DNA of 23,505 bases from a virus (taxonomy: Duplodnaviria > Heunggongvirae > Uroviricota > Caudoviricetes), in the IMG/VR virus record IMGVR_UViG_2925939204_000004, positions 1-23,505 of that record; one strand, written 5' to 3'. This document shows positions 1 through 20,651 of the stretch, piece after piece. The notes under the pieces are model-generated. The model ran no database searches. It was not told where the DNA came from and saw only the letters and a list, made by a program, of their open reading frames with translations. The translations under genes and the position numbers were made by a program. The stretch's first letter is position 1. Each line of letters starts with the position of its first letter.

Positions 1-141
1 TTACTGCTTACACTGTAAGAACGCCGCAAACTCCGCTCCCCAGAAGCTCATCCGTATTTCACACAGCGAACCGTGCAACATCCAGATGATGAGGATTGCC
101 GTCACGCAGAACGTGATGGCCGTAAGCGATTTTTGCGACAT
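1..141 (-). CDS. Hok/Gef-family type I toxin (46 aa)
   Basis: Minus-strand ORF, ATG at 139-141, TAA at 1-3. Translation MSQKSLTAITFCVTAILIIWMLHGSLCEIRMSFWGAEFAAFLQCKQ has one hydrophobic helix and the Hok-family C-V-T...S-L-C-E-I-R signature. AAGGAG lies 9 nt upstream. Gene ends at the window edge. Confidence 0.65.
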   Translation of the reverse strand: MSQKSLTAITFCVTAILIIWMLHGSLCEIRMSFWGAEFAAFLQCKQ

Positions 142-8540: not shown

Positions 8541-9719
8541 TTATAAAGAATTGCTACTTTCTAATTCTGGGTTTCTGGATCTATTTTTACAACCTAAATC
8601 CGAGTGGTAATTCGGTATATCGTTTGTCAAATCTTGTTTGATAGCATTAATTAAGATCATTATGTCGAATTTATGCATATCGTCGCCCCCTTCAGACCTT
8701 AGATGTTCGGATGTGGTGAGTTGAGTCGCTAATTTGCTGTTTGGCCCCCACACAATATTATTTTCGAATTTTCCTTCATGCATTCTGTTATTATATATAC
8801 AGTATTGTCTAATGTTTAATGCACTGGCTAAATGTACAATGGCAGTATCTACAGTTATAACAAAATCAGCATGGCGAACCAATGCAAATGAACATCCGGC
8901 ATCAGAAAATGGAGATAGAGACACATTATCCAATCCATTGTGATTAATCTGTTTTCCCATATTAAAAACTATTGTGTGATATCCCTTAAGGTTATTAAGG
9001 TAAGCTAGTACTTTGTTTATCTGTTCATCAGATAAGGTTCTGCTATTCTGAGAGCCATAAGGGTTAAATATAACTAATTTTTTGTTTTTCTTCCTGAATT
9101 CATTTGCAACAATATTTGCTGGTTCATATATTTTGTTGTCAAAATTAAGCGCTGCAGCATAATTATTATTTTTTATCTTTAGTAAAGATAAAACTTTTTT
9201 CATTCTTTCAGATGTGTGAATGGAACGATTATCGATTATATTTGTATCAAAAATAGTTACGGCAGGATGATTAAAACAGATAGAGTGTTTAGGTCTAAGT
9301 AAATGTAGTGTTTGCAATCTGGTTATCGCTGTGTTATCAAAATTTGAGAAGTCAACAACAAGATCTACATTCAGTTTTTTTATCTTTGCTTTTAGTTCGT
9401 TAAATTTATTTTTCTCGTAAGATATAAAGGCATCCACGCCAACAATATCAGTAAAGAGGAATGATACTCTTGAAGGTGCTATCACATATACCACCATACC
9501 GGATTTTTGAAGTTGTTTAATAAACCCTGAGGTAACGATGCCGTCACCAATGGCTTGCATGTGCATGAAAATGCACACTGTTTTATAACTATCCGGCTGT
9601 AATGATGTTTTCCTTCTGTATCGCATTTTTAGAAATGCCAGTCTGGCCTTCGTCTTTATCTTTTTTGTTTTAATATTTCGCTGTCTGTTAAGCTGTTTTA
9701 ATGATGAAATAACATTCAT
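8541..9719 (-). CDS. GT9-like (heptosyltransferase-fold) glycosyltransferase, AT-rich cargo
   Basis: Very AT-rich ORF. N-terminal VCIFMHMQAIGDGIV...VYVIAPS and C-terminal KKLVIFNPYGSQNSRTLSDEQ and ADFVITVDTAIVHLASALNI resemble GT9 motifs. Start uncertain: the tracked ORF begins at TTG 9779 and the ATG at 9719 has only a weak SD. Confidence 0.5.
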   Translation of the reverse strand: MNVISSLKQLNRQRNIKTKKIKTKARLAFLKMRYRRKTSLQPDSYKTVCIFMHMQAIGDGIVTSGFIKQLQKSGMVVYVIAPSRVSFLFTDIVGVDAFISYEKNKFNELKAKIKKLNVDLVVDFSNFDNTAITRLQTLHLLRPKHSICFNHPAVTIFDTNIIDNRSIHTSERMKKVLSLLKIKNNNYAAALNFDNKIYEPANIVANEFRKKNKKLVIFNPYGSQNSRTLSDEQINKVLAYLNNLKGYHTIVFNMGKQINHNGLDNVSLSPFSDAGCSFALVRHADFVITVDTAIVHLASALNIRQYCIYNNRMHEGKFENNIVWGPNSKLATQLTTSEHLRSEGGDDMHKFDIMILINAIKQDLTNDIPNYHSDLGCKNRSRNPELESSNSL

Positions 9720-9813
9720 AATGGTACCCTGAAATTCCAAATCACACATGTCATCCGAAATGAGCAGGGTACTATACAAAAAACTGGACTACAATGGTTT
9801 GAAATGAAAGCCT

Positions 9814-10413
9814 TTATGCTTGTTTACTCCTTGATTCCACTGGGGAAGCTGGCCACTCAATATCCGGTGCTCTTGATGTATCAACACGGTTCAGCAGCAC
9901 TCGATACTTCTTCCAGGCTTCCAGCAACGAGATTTCTTCCTCCGTTGCGATTTCCAGATCTACAGCATCCTGAAGTGGCGCAATATGCTCACTGGCTACC
10001 TGCATCAGGCTGTTTTTTGTTTCTTCTGCCTCCCGGATCCGGAACAGTTTTTCTGCTTCCGTATCCTTCACCCAGGCTGTGCCGTTCCACTTCTGATATT
10101 CCCCTTCCGGCGACGACCAGGTAACATTTTCCGGTAACGGACCGAGTTCAGAAATAAATAACGCGTCGCCGGAAGCCACGTCATAAACCGTTTTACCACG
10201 ATGATCTTCAACGAGATGCCAAGACGCCCCATCACTGTTGAAAACAGCCACGAAGCCAGCTGGAATATCTGGCGGAGCAATATCAGTACTATTTGCAGGC
10301 AGACCTGTATGAGGTGGAATGTATGCATCACCTTCACCAATAAATTCATTGGTTCCGACCAGCAGATTATAAATTTTTATGGTTCGTGGTTGTTCACTCA
10401 TTCTGAATGCCAT
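9814..10413 (-). CDS. Tail fibre assembly protein (Tfa, P2 gpG-like)
   Basis: 199 aa with conserved C-terminal [26 protein letters not shown]. Its ATG overlaps the stop of the upstream tail fibre ORF (TAATG). Confidence 0.85.
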
Positions 10414-11504: not shown

Positions 11505-12467
11505 TTAATCGTCCGGATAAATGGTAATGACTTCACCGTCGTAAGTTGCTGCCGCCGCGAAAATATCCCCCGGAATTTCCTGAATGATATTCAGCCCTGT
11601 CATGTGGCGGCTGACCGGGCGGGCATCAGCAATCAACCGCTCCATTTCCAGATACATTTCCTCCGTCACGCCACTGTCCAGCGTGCCGACTTCAACGGTA
11701 AATGTTCCCGGTTCTCCGCCGAACTCCCACCACTCAGACACGCGAATGAGGTATCCCAGCGGCTCAATGGCCCGGCGCAGTGCGCTGATGGTTCCTTTGT
11801 GTCGGTGTATCAGCCATGCATCACGAATCACCTGTCGCTTTGTCTCTTCCGGCCAGTTGCGATCCCAGCGGTCAACGGAAAACGCCCAGGCGAGATAAGG
11901 CAGCAGATGCACCGGGCAGGTGTCCGGCGACCACAGCGTGTTGAGGTCTACCGGAATGTCTGTAACGTCCTGAAGCAGCTTGTTGGTGCTGAAGTTGGAC
12001 TCATCTGCGTGAGACGTGCCGTTGAAACCGATCATGATGCGGTCAAGCGCCACCTGCCGGGCAATCTGTGTGCTGACGCGTGACTGAAAATCAGGGTGTG
12101 CCGCCCAGGCATCAAGCTGCGGATACGAAATAAACGTGTCGTAGTTCACCTGTTCGCACTGATATTTACGGTTTTTCAGATCAACCACGTTATTCGGGTT
12201 ACGGCGTTTTGTGCCGTCATAACTGGTATTCGTGCGCGCAATCGGCCCGGTGGTGTCCAGGAGGATTTTTTCGCCTTTCTGGTCGGTCACACCGAACACG
12301 TTAATTTTTTTTGTAAATTCAGTGCTCTCCTTTACTGCGTTTTCAAAACGCTGCTGCACCGAGGGTTCCACGGTAAATCGCGATACCAGTGCAGATACCG
12401 GGATGTTGTTAAGCGACGCCTGCTGCGCCATATAGCAACCCAGCTTGTTGCGGGTAATATCTGACAT
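11505..12467 (-). CDS. Chimeric ORF: N-terminal half of major capsid protein gpN fused in frame to tail protein gpI (deletion remnant)
   Basis: Residues 1 to about 172 resemble gpN (FTVEPSV, RKYQCEQVNYDTFISYPQLDAWA, IMIGFNGT). From about 11965 downstream the protein resembles gpI (LWSPDTCPVHLLPYLAWAFSVDRWDRNWPEE, LGYLIRVSEWWE, MERLIADARPVSRH). Confidence 0.7.
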   Translation of the reverse strand: MSDITRNKLGCYMAQQASLNNIPVSALVSRFTVEPSVQQRFENAVKESTEFTKKINVFGVTDQKGEKILLDTTGPIARTNTSYDGTKRRNPNNVVDLKNRKYQCEQVNYDTFISYPQLDAWAAHPDFQSRVSTQIARQVALDRIMIGFNGTSHADESNFSTNKLLQDVTDIPVDLNTLWSPDTCPVHLLPYLAWAFSVDRWDRNWPEETKRQVIRDAWLIHRHKGTISALRRAIEPLGYLIRVSEWWEFGGEPGTFTVEVGTLDSGVTEEMYLEMERLIADARPVSRHMTGLNIIQEIPGDIFAAAATYDGEVITIYPDD

Positions 12468-12502
12468 CACCAGATTCATAAAAAATTTGCTCCTTTGTCT
12501 TA

Positions 12503-13499: not shown

Positions 13500-14105
13500 G
13501 TGCAGGATGGCAAGGATGCGTTCCAGTTTCGCCCTGGCAAAGTGTGCCACCTGATGAATCCTGACATTAACCAGGAAATCTACGGCATGCCGGAATATCT
13601 CGGCGCATTACTCTCGGCCAGCCTGTCTCATTCGGCGGACATGTTCAGAAAACTGTATTACGACAACGGATCCCACGCCGGGTGCATCATCTACATCGGT
13701 GCAGCGCAGGTAAACCGCGAAAGCATGGACTCCCTGAAAGAAACGCTACAGGGTGCACGTGGTGGCGGTGCGTTTAAAAACGTGCTCATTCATGCGCCCA
13801 ACGGGGGCAAAGAGGGGGTGCAAATTTTGCCGTTCCAGCAGATCACCGCAAAGGATGAGTTCATGAATGTTAAGGCGGCATCCCGTGATGATGTGCTGGC
13901 TGCGCACCGCGTTCCGCCGCAACTGATGGGGGCGATGCCGGGTGAAAAAAGTGCGTTTGGTGATGTGGAGAAGGCCGCGCGGGTTTACGCAATTAACGAG
14001 CTGATGCCCGTCATGGAGGCCATGAAGCACATCAATGACTGGCTTGGCGAAGAGGTGATCCGCTTTAACCCTTACGCACTGTTAGATACCCAGCCCACAT
14101 CCTGA
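13500..14105 (+). pseudogene. Portal protein (P2 gpQ family), C-terminal fragment of about 200 aa
   Basis: Contains PDINQEIYGMPEYL and RDDVLAAHRVPPQLMG portal motifs but begins with GTG only 160 bp from the divergent O start. There is no room for the N-terminal portal half or for the terminase gene P. Confidence 0.65.
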
Positions 14106-14638: not shown

Positions 14639-15157
14639 TCATTCGAAACTGGCAAGAATCTGTTCTCGAACAGAAGATTTCATCGTTAACCCACGATCTA
14701 GGAAAAATTGGAAATGCATTAAGGCTTGTTGTTTGTGTATAAGTCTCCTGCGCACAGCCTCTTGAAGTAGCCCTCCGTGGCGGGCGGCTTTTACACCGCG
14801 TTCCGCACACGTTTTATAAACCGCATTATCCGCCGAAAGACATGTTGCATCATGTATTCTCGCGTTAACAACGCAGCTTATGTCCGCATACTTCAATGCT
14901 CTCCTGCGATTTTTTATCTCAGCCATTTCAATAAAATGTTCAGGTTCGTAATCATTGGTGAAATTGTATGGAAGTTGCAGGCGTGTAAGCTGTTCCTGAA
15001 CATCAAGATTGTATTTAGCTTTTAGTTCCTCGCAGACATAGGGGTCAATCCACACACCACCCGGGTAAATTTGCCAGATAATATCTAAGCATTTACCTTC
15101 GTAAAAATCAGACAGTACATTCGTATCGATAACACATCTGGGGCATTCAAACGGCAT
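14639..15157 (-). CDS. PIN-like (VapC/DUF4411-like) putative nuclease; toxin or effector candidate
   Basis: Starts at ATG 15155-15157, overlapping the upstream gene's stop by 11 nt. N-terminus CVIDTNVLSDF with downstream acidic residues (CEELK, IHDATCLSADN) spaced as in PIN folds. AT-rich. Confidence 0.6.
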   Translation of the reverse strand: MPFECPRCVIDTNVLSDFYEGKCLDIIWQIYPGGVWIDPYVCEELKAKYNLDVQEQLTRLQLPYNFTNDYEPEHFIEMAEIKNRRRALKYADISCVVNARIHDATCLSADNAVYKTCAERGVKAARHGGLLQEAVRRRLIHKQQALMHFQFFLDRGLTMKSSVREQILASFE

Positions 15158-16292
15158 CCTCTCCGGCCTCCTGTTCGTCGTACCATTCATCCAGAAGATT
15201 GCTGAGAGCTTTTCTGTCTAATTCTAAAAGTTCAGATATGAAGGTTTCCGACGCGGAACCGGCTTCCCATGCTTTACGCGATAAGACGGTTAGGCGACCT
15301 TTATAATTTAGTGCTTCCCTAATGGGATTTGGCTCGTGTCTCTTCCAACCTTTACGATTGGCGGTTGCCCATAGGTATCTAGTGTTTTGTTGATTAATTA
15401 AATTACATTTACTAAGACGATCGATGATGCAAGTGGCTGATACTCTGAAAATGCTTTTTAGTCTAAGGACGGTTTCCTCATACGCCCATCCACCACCTTG
15501 CATGACGAATTGTTTTCGCAATGCGCTTTCTGGTACCAAAAAACAAGCAGCAAAGTGATTAGCAACTTTTTCTTCCGGTGAAATTGCTTTGCCATTAGTT
15601 TTATAGCTTTTAGCAGGGCCATGATACTCATCACGGTGGAAGATAAGATGAGCATATTCATGGCAAATACTGAAGATTTGACGTTCTATTGAAATGCTGT
15701 CGTGAACATTTACATAAATCGCGGTACCGTATTTGTTCGAAAACGCAGAAAATCCGAATACCATCCCTTTATCGGTTTCTTCGCGATTGAACGGGATTAC
15801 TCGAATATCCGATGCTTCCAAAATGGCTACAATGTCACCAACGCAAGTAGCGTTTCCTATACCAAGACGGAAACGTTCTTCCATAGCCTTATCTTCGACT
15901 CTTCGCAAATCTTCTGCTTTGGCGGTAAAAATAGGCATTGAGTTAGGAAGATCTTCTGGCAAATTAGCATCAGCAGCTTCCTCAATTGCATTGATATTTT
16001 TTAACTTTTCAATCAACTCATTGCGAAGTTTGGCATCCAACAAATCCGGACTATCTGCTCGCATTGCAAAACGAAACTCGCCATCATCTTGCTCATAAAA
16101 ATACCCGATAGGCTTATCGAAAATCTTGCAGAGCATGATGAGTTGGGTAACGCTTGGGACGCCTAACGCCTGCTCAAACTTACTGTAGGTTTGACGAACA
16201 ACACCGATCGCATCTGCGACGGCGCTTGCACTCATTCCCGCGTCGTTTCTGGCCTGAACCAAGCGTTCTGCTATACGCTGTTGAATGTTCAT
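15147..16292 (-). CDS. XRE-family HTH fused to an ImmA/IrrE-type (COG2856/M78) zinc metallopeptidase
   Basis: N-terminal HTH (QRIAERLVQARNDAGMSASAVADAIGVVRQTYSKFE) and an intact HEXXH motif in SICHEYAHLIFH. AGGTGA SD precedes the start. AT-rich. Confidence 0.7.
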   Translation of the reverse strand: MNIQQRIAERLVQARNDAGMSASAVADAIGVVRQTYSKFEQALGVPSVTQLIMLCKIFDKPIGYFYEQDDGEFRFAMRADSPDLLDAKLRNELIEKLKNINAIEEAADANLPEDLPNSMPIFTAKAEDLRRVEDKAMEERFRLGIGNATCVGDIVAILEASDIRVIPFNREETDKGMVFGFSAFSNKYGTAIYVNVHDSISIERQIFSICHEYAHLIFHRDEYHGPAKSYKTNGKAISPEEKVANHFAACFLVPESALRKQFVMQGGGWAYEETVLRLKSIFRVSATCIIDRLSKCNLINQQNTRYLWATANRKGWKRHEPNPIREALNYKGRLTVLSRKAWEAGSASETFISELLELDRKALSNLLDEWYDEQEAGEDAV

Positions 16293-16446: not shown

Positions 16447-16467
16447 CCAGGGCGGTTTCCGCCCTGG
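16447..16467 (-). terminator. GC-rich hairpin (CCAGGGCGG ttt CCGCCCTGG) after parR
   Basis: Perfect 9-bp stem 7 nt after the ParR stop; no U tract. Confidence 0.3.
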
Positions 16468-16473
16468 CTCTGC

Positions 16474-16785
16474 TTACTCAGGAAATAGCGCCCGGATATT
16501 TCCGGCCATCTGACTGGTTATCTGTGCGGTTGGTACTGGCTGTGACACGGGGCGTTCTGTCCTGGTTTGTGTCACGGATAACGCCTCATCGTCAGCCCAT
16601 GCAGCCAGTCGGTAAGCCTCTGCCGGATTCATTTTCAGAAGTGCCAGCCCGGCCAGAAAAGCCACGCGTTGGCCGCTTTTGCGGGCTTCTGGTGTAAGGC
16701 TGTCCAGCCAGGCGCATGCTTCGCCTTCGTTCTTGACGGCGGCGGGCTTCAGATAGAAACTTATCCGTCTGGTTGGTGTCGTCAT
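16474..16785 (-). CDS. parR: ParR/StbB-like centromere-binding adaptor
   Basis: Start at ATG 16783-16785 with AAGGAG SD, 4 nt after the parM stop. N-terminus RRISFYLKPAAV...AWLDSLTPEARKSGQRVAFLAGLAL resembles the ParR ribbon-helix-helix region. Confidence 0.65.
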   Translation of the reverse strand: MTTPTRRISFYLKPAAVKNEGEACAWLDSLTPEARKSGQRVAFLAGLALLKMNPAEAYRLAAWADDEALSVTQTRTERPVSQPVPTAQITSQMAGNIRALFPE

Positions 16786-16789
16786 TGGT

Positions 16790-17749
16790 TTACTCCTTGT
16801 CCATTGCGTACAGCCCATTAACCAGAGCAAACTGTGGCACCCCGTCCGCGATGAAAGTCGCATTAACTCCGCAGGCTTCGCGGATAGCGGGTGCCACAAT
16901 CTCCGCCCCGCCACCGACAACCATCACCCGCCCGTAACCCGAAAAATCCGCCAGCGCGCGGATCACGCGTTGTTTCAGTGTTTCTTCCTTTTCACGAATA
17001 ACCGCCATCAGGCTGGCGTAATGCGCGTCATTGTGGATGTGCTGGCGCAGCCAGGCTTCATCATGGCGATGTTCGATAATGGTATTGGCGATGTGGTGAC
17101 TGGTGCGCATACCGTTAGTGGCCATCACCGACAGTACGGCATCGGCCATCAGAGAAACGCCTACGTGTGGATCGCAAAACACCTGGCTGATACCTGCCAG
17201 TTGCCCCTGAACCTTTGCCACATCCAGCGTGGTTCCGCCCAAATCCACAATCAGCAGGGATTCAAACGGACTCATGTCAGCCAGTGCCTTAAAGCCAGCC
17301 GGAATGGATTCAGGCATAACCCGCACGTTACGGATAGTGAATGCCTCACCGTTCTGGTACTCCACCGGGCGCATGACGTTCGCTTTTTTGCGGTTGATGT
17401 TGGCCATGTCCGGCTGTGCGTTTGTGTCGAAATATTCGCTCAGTGGCAGGGTGACAACCACATCCACCTCCTGTGGCGTGATGCCTGATTTGACCAGCGC
17501 GTGATGAATGGCAATGACATTCACATCGCTGTACTGGTATTGCGTGTCGGTCGTCTGGACAAAGCGATCGCTGACCGGATCAAAACCATAGCGCACGCCA
17601 TCAAGCATGTAGTTCGCGGGCTGCGTGCCACCGAACGGCGCAGACCATTCCGACTTGAAGCTGTTCGGGCTGATGGCGTTGCGGCGTTCGCCGTTCTCAG
17701 TCCATGCCAGCTTGATGTTGGTGGAGCCGTCATCGATACAAATTTTCAT
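16790..17749 (-). CDS. parM: ParM/StbA actin-like partition ATPase
   Basis: MKICIDDGSTNIKLAW...ISPNSFK...YQYSDVNVIAIHHAL...VMPESIPAG...LIVDLGGTTLD...VVGGGAE aligns along its length with plasmid R1 ParM from memory. Confidence 0.85.
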   Translation of the reverse strand: MKICIDDGSTNIKLAWTENGERRNAISPNSFKSEWSAPFGGTQPANYMLDGVRYGFDPVSDRFVQTTDTQYQYSDVNVIAIHHALVKSGITPQEVDVVVTLPLSEYFDTNAQPDMANINRKKANVMRPVEYQNGEAFTIRNVRVMPESIPAGFKALADMSPFESLLIVDLGGTTLDVAKVQGQLAGISQVFCDPHVGVSLMADAVLSVMATNGMRTSHHIANTIIEHRHDEAWLRQHIHNDAHYASLMAVIREKEETLKQRVIRALADFSGYGRVMVVGGGAEIVAPAIREACGVNATFIADGVPQFALVNGLYAMDKE

Positions 17750-17780
17750 GTCGCTTTTCCTTATGTTGATTAATTAATCG

Positions 17781-17892
17781 TTTACGGGATTCTGAAATCC
17801 CGTTTTTGCCTGTTTTGTGCGCGCTTCATATATCGCTGCGCGTTTTTTGCTCATTTACGGGATTCGTGAGTCCCGTTTCTGTCTGTTTTTTG
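17781..17892. repeat. Two about 39-bp imperfect direct repeats, each with an internal dyad, upstream of parM (candidate parC)
   Basis: R1 17781-17819 TTTACGGGATTCTGAAATCCCGTTTTTGCCTGTTTTGTG; R2 17854-17892 TTTACGGGATTCGTGAGTCCCGTTTCTGTCTGTTTTTTG (about 31/39 identical). R2 lies inside the last codons of gene A. Confidence 0.4.
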
Positions 17893-20651
17893 TTTCCGCT
17901 GGTCAGGCCACCCCGCAGCAGGTCTGCTTTGCGGCTGGCGCGTTCAGTGGTTTCACTGATTCTCTGTGCGTGCTCTGCGTCGCGGATGGCGCGCAGCATG
18001 TCAGAAAGCACGGTAACGGGTGTTTTCATGGTGTTCTGGTCCTGCTGAAGTGTGGATGCCAGGCGTGCGGCGGCTTCAGGGTCTGATGCCCCTAGTAGTT
18101 CCAGATAGCTGGCGACCGGGTTATGGCGGATTTCCATGCTGTTTACGCCATGATTACGGCTCAGGCGCTGCCAGAGCTGCGTGATTCGGCTGTCCGGGCG
18201 GGTATCCGGTTTGCGTACAATTTCAAATCCCTGCGGTGCAATGATGCTGCCGTCAACGTACAGACTGCCGCCCCGTAACAGGTGCTGCATCTGTTGTTCA
18301 CCGATATGCAGGCCGAGAGATTCAGCAGACTCTCGCCATTCTTTAGCGAGTAATTCGTGGTTATCAGGCAAAGGCCGCTGCTGTTTGCGGCTCTGTGTCC
18401 AGCTCTGCATTTCATCACTGCTGTTTTTTGCCTGTTTGTCACGCAGCGAACGCATCAGCGCCCGGCGTTCGTGCCGTTTCAGTGAGCGCATCCATTCATT
18501 CACTTCAACGCCGTCAGGGAGCTGCGGCCACGGTGCTGGCCGTTCTTCCGGCTGTTCTGTCCCGTTGTTGTTCGTTTCCTGTACACGGGGACAGTTATTG
18601 CCACGAGTCCAAGGGGCGGCTGGGCCGCCCTGAAGGTCAAAACCATTTTCGCGGGCGCTGTCTTCCGCTTCCGGTTTACGTCTTACCAGCTTCCAGTTAT
18701 CCGGATGCGTGCACACACGGGAGGATTCCCCGATGAGTGGTGACCAGATCCCGTAAATCTGTACGCTCTGTTCGCCGTAATCGTTCAGCTCATCTGCGAG
18801 GTCGTAGGCAGTGCGAATCAGGTAGTCTTTGCGTGGAACAAGTACGCCGCCCTGTTTTTCAATGTAGGTGGCAAAACACCCGGCATCGGCGGCAGCGAGT
18901 ACCGCATCCATTGCGTCATCCTTCAGCCGTTGCGGGCCTTCCGGGTTGCGTGCCATCTGGCTGGCAAGGCGGCGCAGTTCACGCCACACCTGACGGGAGG
19001 GGATGCCAAAGAACTGGAACTGGCGGACCCGATGAAGGCGCGCCCAGCCGATGGCGCGCTCCACGCTCTCGGCCATTGATTTTCCGGTTTCGTGGTCAAC
19101 GCGTGGTTTGCCCGTTTTCGGATCGATTCCATCCACGGCGCGGTTGTCCAGGTTTTTTCCGATGTAGGTGGCGATGTAGCTGGTTGGCGTGCCTTTGGAG
19201 CCGTCGACGTACTCCACCTTAAAGCGCGGAGTAATATCATTGCCCAGCTCGTGGCGGTCTTCCTGAATGGCAATATCGCGGGTGATGGCCACGATGCTGT
19301 CGATTTCTTCCGGATGAGCAAAGACCATCATATGCCAGTGCACGGTGCCGTCATGGTGAGGCTCCACCGTGCGGATGCCATACCAGCGCAGGCCGTCGCG
19401 GTTCAGTTTTTTGCGGACCGCCGCAAAAAAGGTGTTAACCAGGTAATCGCTGGAGTCGCGCATGGTGGCCCCGTTCCATTTGGGATTCGGATGACCGTTC
19501 TCTGTTGTGGCGTGGTATTTTGACGGGCAGGTGACAGTCAGAAACACCGCTTTGTCGCCACGGGCTTCGGCCAGAAGTTCCAGTCCCTTCATGGTGGCCA
19601 TCATTTCTGCCTTACGGTGAACCGGGTTACTTACTCCCGCGTAATACACTGTCTCGAGATCAATCGTGAAGCCGTCTTCGTTTTCCAGTTCGAAGCTCTT
19701 CAGGAAGTCGCGGGTTTTCTCGCGCTGTGCGCGAAACTCGCTTAACGCGTCCTGGCTCAGATAGGGTGATGTTTTTCTGGAAACCAGACAGGCGGCGCGG
19801 AGTTGTTCTTCTCTCCACTCACAACGTAACAGCCACAGTTTGCGTTTCCACCAGTCCGCACAGGTCAGGCGAAGGATTGCGCCCGGCAGCAGTTCCGTAT
19901 CCGGTTCGCTCTTGTTCAGGGCTTCGTAATGTGGCGGCATGATGTGCAGGCGTAATGCGATACGAGCCAGCATCCGGTAAGCCTTCAACATTACATCCAT
20001 GGTCAGCTCGCCATCTCTGGCACCAAAGCCATCGCAGAGTGTTTCGAAGGTGCTGCTGAACATCGCCGCGGTCATGGTGGCCAGCGTCTGTATCTGGTGC
20101 TTGTTGAGCTGCGGCAGGTAAAGCAAATCGTCCAGGCGTTCGCGCCCGGCAAGGGAGCGATAACCCGGTGTCAGCCAGCGTCCGTCAGTGCGATCCAGAC
20201 GTTCGAATATTTTGCGCAGGGTTCCGCGTGCATAGCGTTCCGCCTGCCAGCTCTTTTTGCCTTTCTGGCGATCGGCTTCCTGTTTTTTGCGCAGGAAAGA
20301 GAGGTGGCGGCTCAGTGGTTCACGCAGATAAACAGGTAGTGCCTTTAGTGTGGCAAAGGCACGGGCTACCGGGTCTTGTTCTGTTGCCCGGCGCTTACTG
20401 ATGATGCTCTGTGCCAGCTTTTCACGCTGTCCGGCTTCCTCAAGGGATGCCATGAGTTTTTTACCCATGGAGGATTGTGCGAAAAAGGCTTCTTCCTTCG
20501 CTTCCTGTTCTTCCTGTGCCCTTTTGTCCGCCTCAAGGTAGTAACGGATGGCGCGTTGCAGGTCGGTTTCAGTTTCCTGCCTGCGCTCCGTAAATCTGGC
20601 CGGATCAATGGCTGGCCGTGGTTCATTCCAGCTCCATGCAAACTCACTCAT
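17826..20651 (-). CDS. A: Rolling-circle replication initiator (P2 gpA family)
   Basis: HUH motif (VHWHMMVF) and catalytic Tyr region (TPTSYIATYIGKN). Start taken at the ATG overlapping the upstream stop (ATGA at 20648-20651). At 941 aa it is longer than P2 gpA. Confidence 0.85.
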   Translation of the reverse strand: MSEFAWSWNEPRPAIDPARFTERRQETETDLQRAIRYYLEADKRAQEEQEAKEEAFFAQSSMGKKLMASLEEAGQREKLAQSIISKRRATEQDPVARAFATLKALPVYLREPLSRHLSFLRKKQEADRQKGKKSWQAERYARGTLRKIFERLDRTDGRWLTPGYRSLAGRERLDDLLYLPQLNKHQIQTLATMTAAMFSSTFETLCDGFGARDGELTMDVMLKAYRMLARIALRLHIMPPHYEALNKSEPDTELLPGAILRLTCADWWKRKLWLLRCEWREEQLRAACLVSRKTSPYLSQDALSEFRAQREKTRDFLKSFELENEDGFTIDLETVYYAGVSNPVHRKAEMMATMKGLELLAEARGDKAVFLTVTCPSKYHATTENGHPNPKWNGATMRDSSDYLVNTFFAAVRKKLNRDGLRWYGIRTVEPHHDGTVHWHMMVFAHPEEIDSIVAITRDIAIQEDRHELGNDITPRFKVEYVDGSKGTPTSYIATYIGKNLDNRAVDGIDPKTGKPRVDHETGKSMAESVERAIGWARLHRVRQFQFFGIPSRQVWRELRRLASQMARNPEGPQRLKDDAMDAVLAAADAGCFATYIEKQGGVLVPRKDYLIRTAYDLADELNDYGEQSVQIYGIWSPLIGESSRVCTHPDNWKLVRRKPEAEDSARENGFDLQGGPAAPWTRGNNCPRVQETNNNGTEQPEERPAPWPQLPDGVEVNEWMRSLKRHERRALMRSLRDKQAKNSSDEMQSWTQSRKQQRPLPDNHELLAKEWRESAESLGLHIGEQQMQHLLRGGSLYVDGSIIAPQGFEIVRKPDTRPDSRITQLWQRLSRNHGVNSMEIRHNPVASYLELLGASDPEAAARLASTLQQDQNTMKTPVTVLSDMLRAIRDAEHAQRISETTERASRKADLLRGGLTSGNKKQTETGLTNPVNEQKTRSDI

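Follow-up and report, generated by a model that had tools for sequence, protein, structure and literature searches.

We examined a 23,505-nucleotide (nt) stretch of DNA, positions 1 to 23,505 of IMG/VR record IMGVR_UViG_2925939204_000004 (referred to here, at its full length, as the window), which carries a defective P2-like prophage of the P88 type from an Escherichia coli chromosome. Within this prophage lies a two-gene locus, parMR, whose products are related to the ParM and ParR proteins of plasmid partition. On the minus strand, the order runs from gene A across a 76-nt gap to parM and directly on to parR (Table 1), with the gene A stop codon at 17826-17828. An AAGGA Shine-Dalgarno sequence at positions -13 to -9 precedes parM, and parR, which starts 4 nt past the parM stop, has AAGGAG ahead of it. 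An earlier note on this DNA had described ParM and ParR homologues with strong Shine-Dalgarno sequences and tight spacing, and all of these are present, with Pfam matches for both proteins.

Table 1. Features of the parMR locus, with positions in the window.
Feature	Positions	Strand	Description
parR	16474-16785	minus	103 amino acids (aa); ribbon-helix-helix-family adaptor; Pfam Plasmid_stab_B (PF10784)
parM	16790-17749	minus	319 aa; actin-like segregation ATPase; Pfam StbA_N and ParM C-terminal domain
AT-rich block ATTAATTAATCAA and AAGGA Shine-Dalgarno sequence	17766-17778 (block); 17758-17762 (Shine-Dalgarno)	minus	between proximal dyad and parM ATG
Proximal 42-nt repeat	17778-17819	minus	palindrome CGGGATT-N4-AATCCCG at 17785-17802; candidate ParR box (centromere half and/or operator)
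Distal 42-nt repeat	17851-17892	minus	palindrome at 17858-17875; candidate second ParR box
Gene A	17826-20651	minus	P2-type rolling-circle replication endonuclease; Pfam Phage_GPA, 433 bits

Judged from their sequences, both proteins are clear members of the ParM and ParR families of plasmids R1 and pB171. ParM was matched in Pfam by StbA_N (275 bits) and the ParM C-terminal domain (232 bits), and in PHROGs by phrog_691, annotated ‘partition protein’ (306 bits). It aligned end to end with the ParM of plasmid R1 (PDB 1mwk; 316 bits, E = 2.7e-93), to which it is ~57% identical over its full length. The nucleotide-binding motifs IDDGSTNIKL, PESIPAG, DLGGTTLD and GGGAE were all aligned and conserved between the two proteins, so that the actin-fold ParM of the type II (ParMRC) R1/pB171 family is found here with its catalytic motifs intact. 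NCBIfam returned no family above its cut-off for ParM, ParR or A.

By gene position and family matches, a ParR adaptor lies directly downstream of ParM, as in the type II family. ParR matched Plasmid_stab_B at 86 bits, and a profile of seven sequences (the window’s ParR and six relatives), searched against PDB sequences, retrieved the pB171 ParR/StbB structure (PDB 2jd3) over residues 4-92 with E = 1.8e-14. The ribbon-helix-helix fold is a prediction from these family and profile matches; an AlphaFold model of the monomer was of low confidence (predicted local distance difference test score of 55) and was not used. Two elements were invariant: an N-terminal RRISFYLKP strand, the putative DNA reader, and a C-terminal N-I-x-x-[LF]-F-P tail, whose NIxxLFPE form is a putative peptide for ParM binding. 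At the extreme C-terminus, an N-x-x-x-L-F-P motif did not vary among 20 prophage ParRs. Plasmid, phage D6 and other prophage ParRs have both this motif and the N-terminal strand in common. Between these ends the protein varies. Identity among ParR alleles within Escherichia falls from 95% to as low as 52%, against at least 95% for the adjacent ParM, and the divergence is confined to residues ~15-35 and, above all, to a hypervariable linker at ~65-95. ParR has been described as a ribbon-helix-helix DNA reader followed by a disordered linker and a ParM-binding tail (PMC5016525); conserved ends around a variable linker are, at the level of sequence, the pattern expected of this architecture.

The polymorphism of parR is also visible within one phage lineage, where a recombination hotspot seems to have its boundary within parR and to leave the N-terminal strand and the final ~8 codons untouched (related loci L003-L085). 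DNA homology between phages breaks near codon 18 of parR, or at or within its 3' part, and therefore the variable P2-type hotspot starts just after parMR or in its linker-coding part.

Upstream of parM lie two direct repeats of 42 nt, identical at 34 of 42 positions (81%) and spaced 73 nt apart. They form the best ungapped pair, whereas in 500 dinucleotide shuffles the best 42-nt pair averaged 23.2 +/- 1.1 matches and reached 28 at most. Each repeat holds a dyad with arms of 8 base pairs (bp), forming an 18-20-bp palindrome of the form CGGGATT-N4-AATCCCG (core CGGGAT-N6-ATCCCG). The proximal palindrome is centered ~44 nt upstream of the parM ATG; the distal one lies 73 bp, or ~7 helical turns, further upstream and within the last 22 codons of gene A, an overlap that had been recognized before. 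The previous description of two dyad-bearing direct repeats needs one qualification, namely that the distal dyad is imperfect in the window (GGGACT...AATCCC on the coding strand), while its population consensus is the perfect GGGATT-CACA-AATCCC. In the complete P88 genome, the palindrome occurs at these two sites only. Among 68 distinct P88-like sequences, the arms (CGGGA...TCC) were near-invariant and variation fell in the center and at the outermost positions, a combination that is typical of a palindrome bound by protein. One natural variant lacks exactly one repeat unit.

A protein search recovered intermediates at 54-62% identity to ParM, and the genomic context was examined for four of them, from Hafnia (62%), Plesiomonas (62%), Serratia (58%) and Enterobacter (54%). 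Each of the four has ParM together with a PF10784 ParR in a P2-like prophage, placed between a Phage_GPA gene on one side and the portal/terminase genes on the other. Because the nearest known relatives all occupy this same slot, the sequences argue for a long-standing phage-borne clade of ParM. A Dickeya relative, 49% identical, sits in an integrative and conjugative element (ICE).

The paired repeats can be followed into the two closest of these relatives. In Hafnia, GGGATTGAGGAAACCC at -128 is followed by GGGTTCATTAAATCCC at -55, a spacing of 73 bp. Plesiomonas carries two GCGGGACAAC-N-CCC repeats at a spacing of 72 bp, and here too the distal one overlaps the end of A. In both, the counterpart of the proximal dyad stands at the same distance from the ATG. 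The Hafnia distal dyad is located within a 167-aa open reading frame (ORF), distinct from A, that is inserted between A and parM; because this dyad lies in a different ORF at the same 73-bp spacing, the repeats go with parMR and not with A. A spacing of 72-73 bp is thus kept across ~40% ParM divergence, whatever the upstream gene. The earlier note had offered two views of the repeats, as a candidate centromere or as elements of A-dependent replication. The second is not borne out by the Hafnia arrangement, and as the sole two such dyads in P88, in a layout kept by diverged relatives, the repeats are the best candidate ParR sites.

We then asked how widely the locus is distributed. The 1.55-kb segment was present in 1307 of 5426 complete E. 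coli genomes (~24%), at 1453 chromosomal and 2 plasmid places, so that its usual carrier is not a low-copy extrachromosomal element. It is 100% identical to the corresponding segment of a degraded prophage adjoining btuC in strain 165 and ten other strains, and the proposed check of chromosomal against plasmid location places the window copy in the chromosome, next to btuC. In the phage collection, the segment was found in 14 records, all of them P88-like Peduoviridae (genus Xuanwuvirus), and a tblastn search with ParM among 50,697 phage records returned only those 14 and the plasmid prophage D6 (48% identity). P88-type A, at 84% identity or more, occurred in exactly the 14 parMR-carrying records by tblastn; the other 364 Peduoviridae gene A matches were at most 45% identical. 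The order A, parM, parR, variable genes, portal is shared by P88, vB_EcoM-569R5 and a complete P88-like genome of 34 kb, and the locus stands between A and the variable hotspot in all 14 records. When viral contigs were scanned with ParM, only copies 99-100% identical came up, which were uninformative on divergence.

Genuine plasmid ParMs in PLSDB were at most 53% identical to the window’s ParM. The few PLSDB matches at 99% or above were all P88-like prophages in large records or phage-sized records. Because of its fixed position and this distance from plasmid ParMs, the locus is, on sequence grounds, neither variable cargo nor a recent capture from a known plasmid. Purifying selection on parM is strong as well (see below), and the suggestion that the locus might be cargo or a separately inserted mobile element therefore finds no support. 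The accompanying statement that P2 phages are not known to need partition remains true of the other 364 Peduoviridae records that have a gene A match, but the P88-like lineage has long carried parMR.

Sequence variation among related loci indicates that parM is maintained. The ratio of nonsynonymous to synonymous polymorphism (pN/pS), pooled over pairwise comparisons, was 0.051 for parM, 0.242 for the last 600 nt of gene A and 0.21 for the commonest parR allele type. Nucleotide diversity (pi) was lowest over parM, at ~0.02 versus ~0.04 in A, and ParM was an intact 319-aa ORF in all 85 of the related loci. parM is under strong purifying selection.

Expression of parMR probably depends on the early operon of the phage. 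A consensus scan found no sigma-70 promoter between A and parM, and the same scan of the 76-nt gap found no minus-strand terminator-like site. Since the gap has no recognizable promoter or terminator, parMR would be expressed with the early (lytic or establishment) operon and not in the repressed lysogen, probably by co-transcription with gene A from an early promoter. An AT-rich block (ATTAATCAA) between the proximal dyad and the Shine-Dalgarno sequence is conserved in P88, Hafnia and Plesiomonas, and a TTAATCAA-(n)-AAGG arrangement recurs in the Hafnia and Plesiomonas loci. This block may serve as a weak -10-like element, overlapped by a ParR operator as in R1. Directly after the parR stop there is a hairpin at 16447-16467 with perfect 9-bp arms (CCAGGGCGG-TTT-CCGCCCTGG), followed by no U-tract on the coding strand; the DNA is least conserved at this point (pi 0.43), and the hairpin is therefore probably part of the variable cargo rather than of the parMR module.

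On balance, we lean slightly towards the view that parMR is a working type II (ParMRC-type) segregation cassette that acts on extrachromosomal phage circles and is fixed in the replication/early region of P88-like (Xuanwuvirus) phages and of related Enterobacterales P2-like prophages. Its firm part lies in the family membership of the proteins, the intact catalytic motifs, the purifying selection, the conserved position and the two-dyad architecture. In such a cassette, ParR dimers would bind the two CGGGAT-N6-ATCCCG palindromes, which lie 73 bp apart on the same helix face upstream of parM. The C-terminal NIxxLFP tails of ParR would then capture the ends of ParM-ATP filaments, and filament growth would push phage DNA circles apart. 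We infer that this would take place after infection and before integration, or after excision during A-driven rolling-circle replication. The outcome would be the distribution or positioning of circles in the growing cell, and not the maintenance of a plasmid prophage. A further proposal, which we put forward only tentatively, is that P88-like and related P2-like phages either pass through a partitioned plasmid-like phase or use an actin-like cytoskeleton to organize rolling-circle replication, with a minimal two-palindrome centromere in either case.

Several observations weigh against a working segregation cassette of this kind. P2-type lytic replication yields many circles, and active partition would then bring no obvious benefit. 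The candidate centromere is atypical: parC is typically a tandem array of direct repeats that overlaps the par promoter, made up in R1 of ten 11-bp direct repeats (2 x 5) and in pSK41 of contiguous 20-bp repeats, and two separated palindromes differ from every characterized parC in the same account (PMC5016525). The parC-type features present here amount to upstream repeats in two blocks, with one palindrome each and two boxes in total, and no promoter was detected in the scan described above. A ParR ring or helix capable of capping a ParM filament might not form on two palindromes, and the dyads might be only an autoregulatory operator. At the nucleotide level, the dyad region is no more conserved than the adjoining coding DNA (pi 0.03-0.09). 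The upstream layout also differs in Serratia and Enterobacter, which have 20-bp inverted arms starting GGGAAC, 26-30 bp apart; the N-terminal strand of the Serratia ParR is slightly different too (NRKISFYLKP).

It is unlikely that the repeats are something other than ParR sites, either an origin or nick site in A-dependent replication or hairpins acting as RNA structures or terminators. The P2 origin is known to lie within gene A, and the distal repeat is likewise inside gene A; the Hafnia distal dyad, however, keeps its 73-bp spacing while lying in the 167-aa ORF. On the plus strand, both dyads score as intrinsic-terminator-like hairpins and are followed by T-rich tracts, but we did not adopt this as the primary reading: the annotated neighbors are all on the minus strand, leaving no transcript for plus-strand terminators to end, and the minus-strand hairpins have no following U-tract. 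The mRNA-sense strand does fold better than shuffled sequences (z = -3.8), although this favorable energy is trivial because the region holds two copies of one palindrome. We also rejected the RNA-structure reading, as the common polymorphisms favor neither strand consistently: pairing on the mRNA strand is kept by -54 A/G and -37 C/T, and pairing on the other by -121 C/T and -108 T/C. The arm and center pattern noted above is instead typical of a protein-bound palindrome.

Improbable, too, is a role for ParMR in trans, in exclusion, incompatibility or defense against plasmids, phage-plasmids or superinfecting P88-like phages. Such a role would be in keeping with the position of the locus, which borders a P2-type variable hotspot that here carries a RosmerTA-like pair, and with the unusually high allelic diversity of ParR beside a near-constant ParM. 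R1 parC, moreover, expresses incompatibility, according to the title of Dam and Gerdes 1994 (cited in PMC5016525). Yet neither ParM nor ParR was matched in PADLOC, and parMR is constant in 14 of the 14 P88-like records, with variable cargo beginning downstream of parR. The diversity of ParR lies in its linker, while the DNA-reading strand and tail are invariant. No association of ParR allele type with dyad variant was found among P88-like phages, in a test that has no power because the DNA-reading strand is invariant. Cross-talk with plasmids is unlikely given that their ParMs are at most 53% identical.

The earlier note had raised an episomal or phage-plasmid-like existence for the element as one possibility. 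In this view, the prophage would be stably or alternately episomal, with parMR and hok/sok as its maintenance kit, which we consider quite improbable. One PLSDB record, NZ_CP148288.1 (locus L083), is a 34,461-bp circular ‘plasmid’ from E. coli strain Z1323PEC0009, isolated from a cat, and consists of a complete P88-like genome with integrase. P88-like genomes, including the window, also carry hok/gef and a sok-like RNA, homologues of R1’s second stability locus, and the one further phage of the collection whose ParM belongs to this family, D6, is a plasmid prophage. The circular record may be a genuine episome or an excised replicative form, however, and in the latter case could have been captured by assembly. 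Nearly all copies in complete E. coli genomes are chromosomal, as counted above. An integrase and a C repressor are present, and a plasmid replication module is absent, the sole replication gene being the P2-type A for the rolling-circle protein. P88 itself came from mitomycin C induction of chromosomal prophages in lysogenic strains (PMC5285337). Finally, the window prophage is heavily degraded, as a passively carried, non-functional relic of an ancestral plasmid-phage fusion might be, but the low pN/pS of parM, its intact ORF in every related locus, its conserved catalytic motifs and the retention of the module across five diverged prophage lineages make this explanation very hard to credit.

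The parMR locus can be compared with several known systems. It shares with R1 ParMRC (parA/stb) and pB171 ParR/StbB the order repeats-parM-parR, the ParR Pfam family and the C-terminal ParR tail, and with R1 also the division of the upstream repeats into two blocks (R1 layout: PMC5016525). R1, by contrast, is a low-copy plasmid, and parMR here is borne by an integrating P2-like phage. Unlike the ten 11-bp iterons that R1 spreads over ~160 bp, there are two single 18-20-bp palindromes, one of which lies in the upstream gene, and the short intergenic region of 76 nt has no recognizable promoter of its own. The StbA/StbB system of D6, a P1-like phage-plasmid, has a ParM of the same family at 48% identity, and the D6 GenBank annotation records a similarity to ‘phage P88 StbA’. 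D6 differs in being maintained as a plasmid and in having a ~265-bp upstream region with several short repeats of the TCTCA type.

The proposed role has two experimentally studied precedents. The best functional analogy is srpMRC of the SXT/R391 ICEs, a type II locus that is expressed only with the excision and replication program and stabilizes the excised form, which replicates by rolling circle (PMC4489591). As here, an actin-type partition locus sits on a normally integrated element that replicates by a rolling-circle enzyme once excised. SrpM and SrpR are, however, distant from R1 ParMR, SrpR has no recognizable homology to ParR, and the carrier is an ICE rather than a tailed phage. A second analogy, functional only, is AlpAC/alpS of the Corynebacterium glutamicum prophage CGP3, which is induced early and needed for efficient phage DNA replication (PMC4446434, PMC5539076). 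As is proposed here, an integrated prophage carries an actin-like protein and a co-transcribed adaptor that binds its own upstream region, but AlpC and AlpA come from other families of actin-like proteins and adaptors, and CGP3 differs in phage type and in the phylum of its host.

The genes themselves are already known, in that public records annotate them as ParM or partition protein and PHROGs holds families for both. In the literature searched, which left out many subscription journals, we found no analysis of the locus, of its repeats or of what it does in P2-like phages, and the paper describing P88 makes no mention of the locus (PMC5285337). What we describe is thus a machine of a known type whose host element is unusual and whose cis site is unusually reduced. 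Its annotation is not new, and there are precedents for the concept.

Outside the locus, this prophage copy is decayed. Compared with strain 165 and P88, it lacks a block of early genes, the large terminase gene and parts of two others, namely the 5' part of portal and a piece of the tail-fiber gene. Between 11494 and 14105, an ORF at 11505-12479 joins the N-terminal half of the P2-type major capsid protein to tail protein I, the portal remnant at 13500-14105 retains only the C-terminal 201 codons, and further deletions relative to strain 165 lie at ~11494 and ~21200. The parM, parR and repeats of this defective copy are nonetheless 100% identical to those of other strains.

Gene A of the P88 type (941-950 aa) carries a C-terminal extension of ~140 codons (17826-18260) that ends in the distal dyad. 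This extension does not align with the other 364 Peduoviridae A proteins, whose alignments stop at residue ~800, and it evolves faster than parM (pN/pS 0.24). On the other side of the locus, the variable hotspot between parR and the portal (14639-16292, minus strand) holds two overlapping genes. The first encodes a 381-aa protein with helix-turn-helix and M78-peptidase domains that matches PADLOC RmrA, the RosmerTA antitoxin, at 120 bits, and the second a 183-aa PIN-domain protein with a weak match to PDC-S70. The two are likely a RosmerTA-like pair in which the PIN protein is the toxin, serving in defense or as a toxin-antitoxin system; different genes occupy this position in P88 and other relatives.

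At the start of the window (1-141 and the 128-287 region, minus strand), a 46-aa ORF encodes a Hok/Gef-family toxin (MSQKSLTAITFCVTAILIIWMLHG...) and is accompanied by a match to sok-like antisense RNA (Rfam RF01794; 48 bits, below the gathering score of 59; E = 1e-9). The corresponding region of P88, which is 96% identical to this segment, is annotated as a hok/gef gene. With hok/sok and parMR both in the window, one prophage therefore has homologues of both stability loci of plasmid R1. Elsewhere, a glycosyltransferase family 9 gene (8541-9779, minus strand) lies beside the tail-fiber assembly gene, where P88 has an invertase region, and an Rfam IS009 match (RF02111, 218 bits, 9872-10070) falls inside the tail-fiber assembly gene (9814-10413).

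Partition systems count as a defining trait of plasmids and plasmid prophages, and here a cassette of the R1 family is stable and selected in a lineage of integrating phages. If it is functional, integrating temperate phages would, like SXT-type ICEs, invest in segregating or positioning their transient circles. Two 18-bp boxes would then be a very compact natural centromere, bearing on the minimum number of ParR sites per ParM machine. ParM and ParR matches would also have to be used with caution as plasmid markers in contig classification. The system lends itself to experiments, since P88 can be induced and forms plaques. Should the reading of a plasmid-like phase or a replication-organizing cytoskeleton prove true, an integrating coliphage would for the first time be seen to use a type II segregation machine in its life cycle, and such a machine, paired with a hok/sok-type killer locus, would be present in about a quarter of complete E. 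coli genomes.

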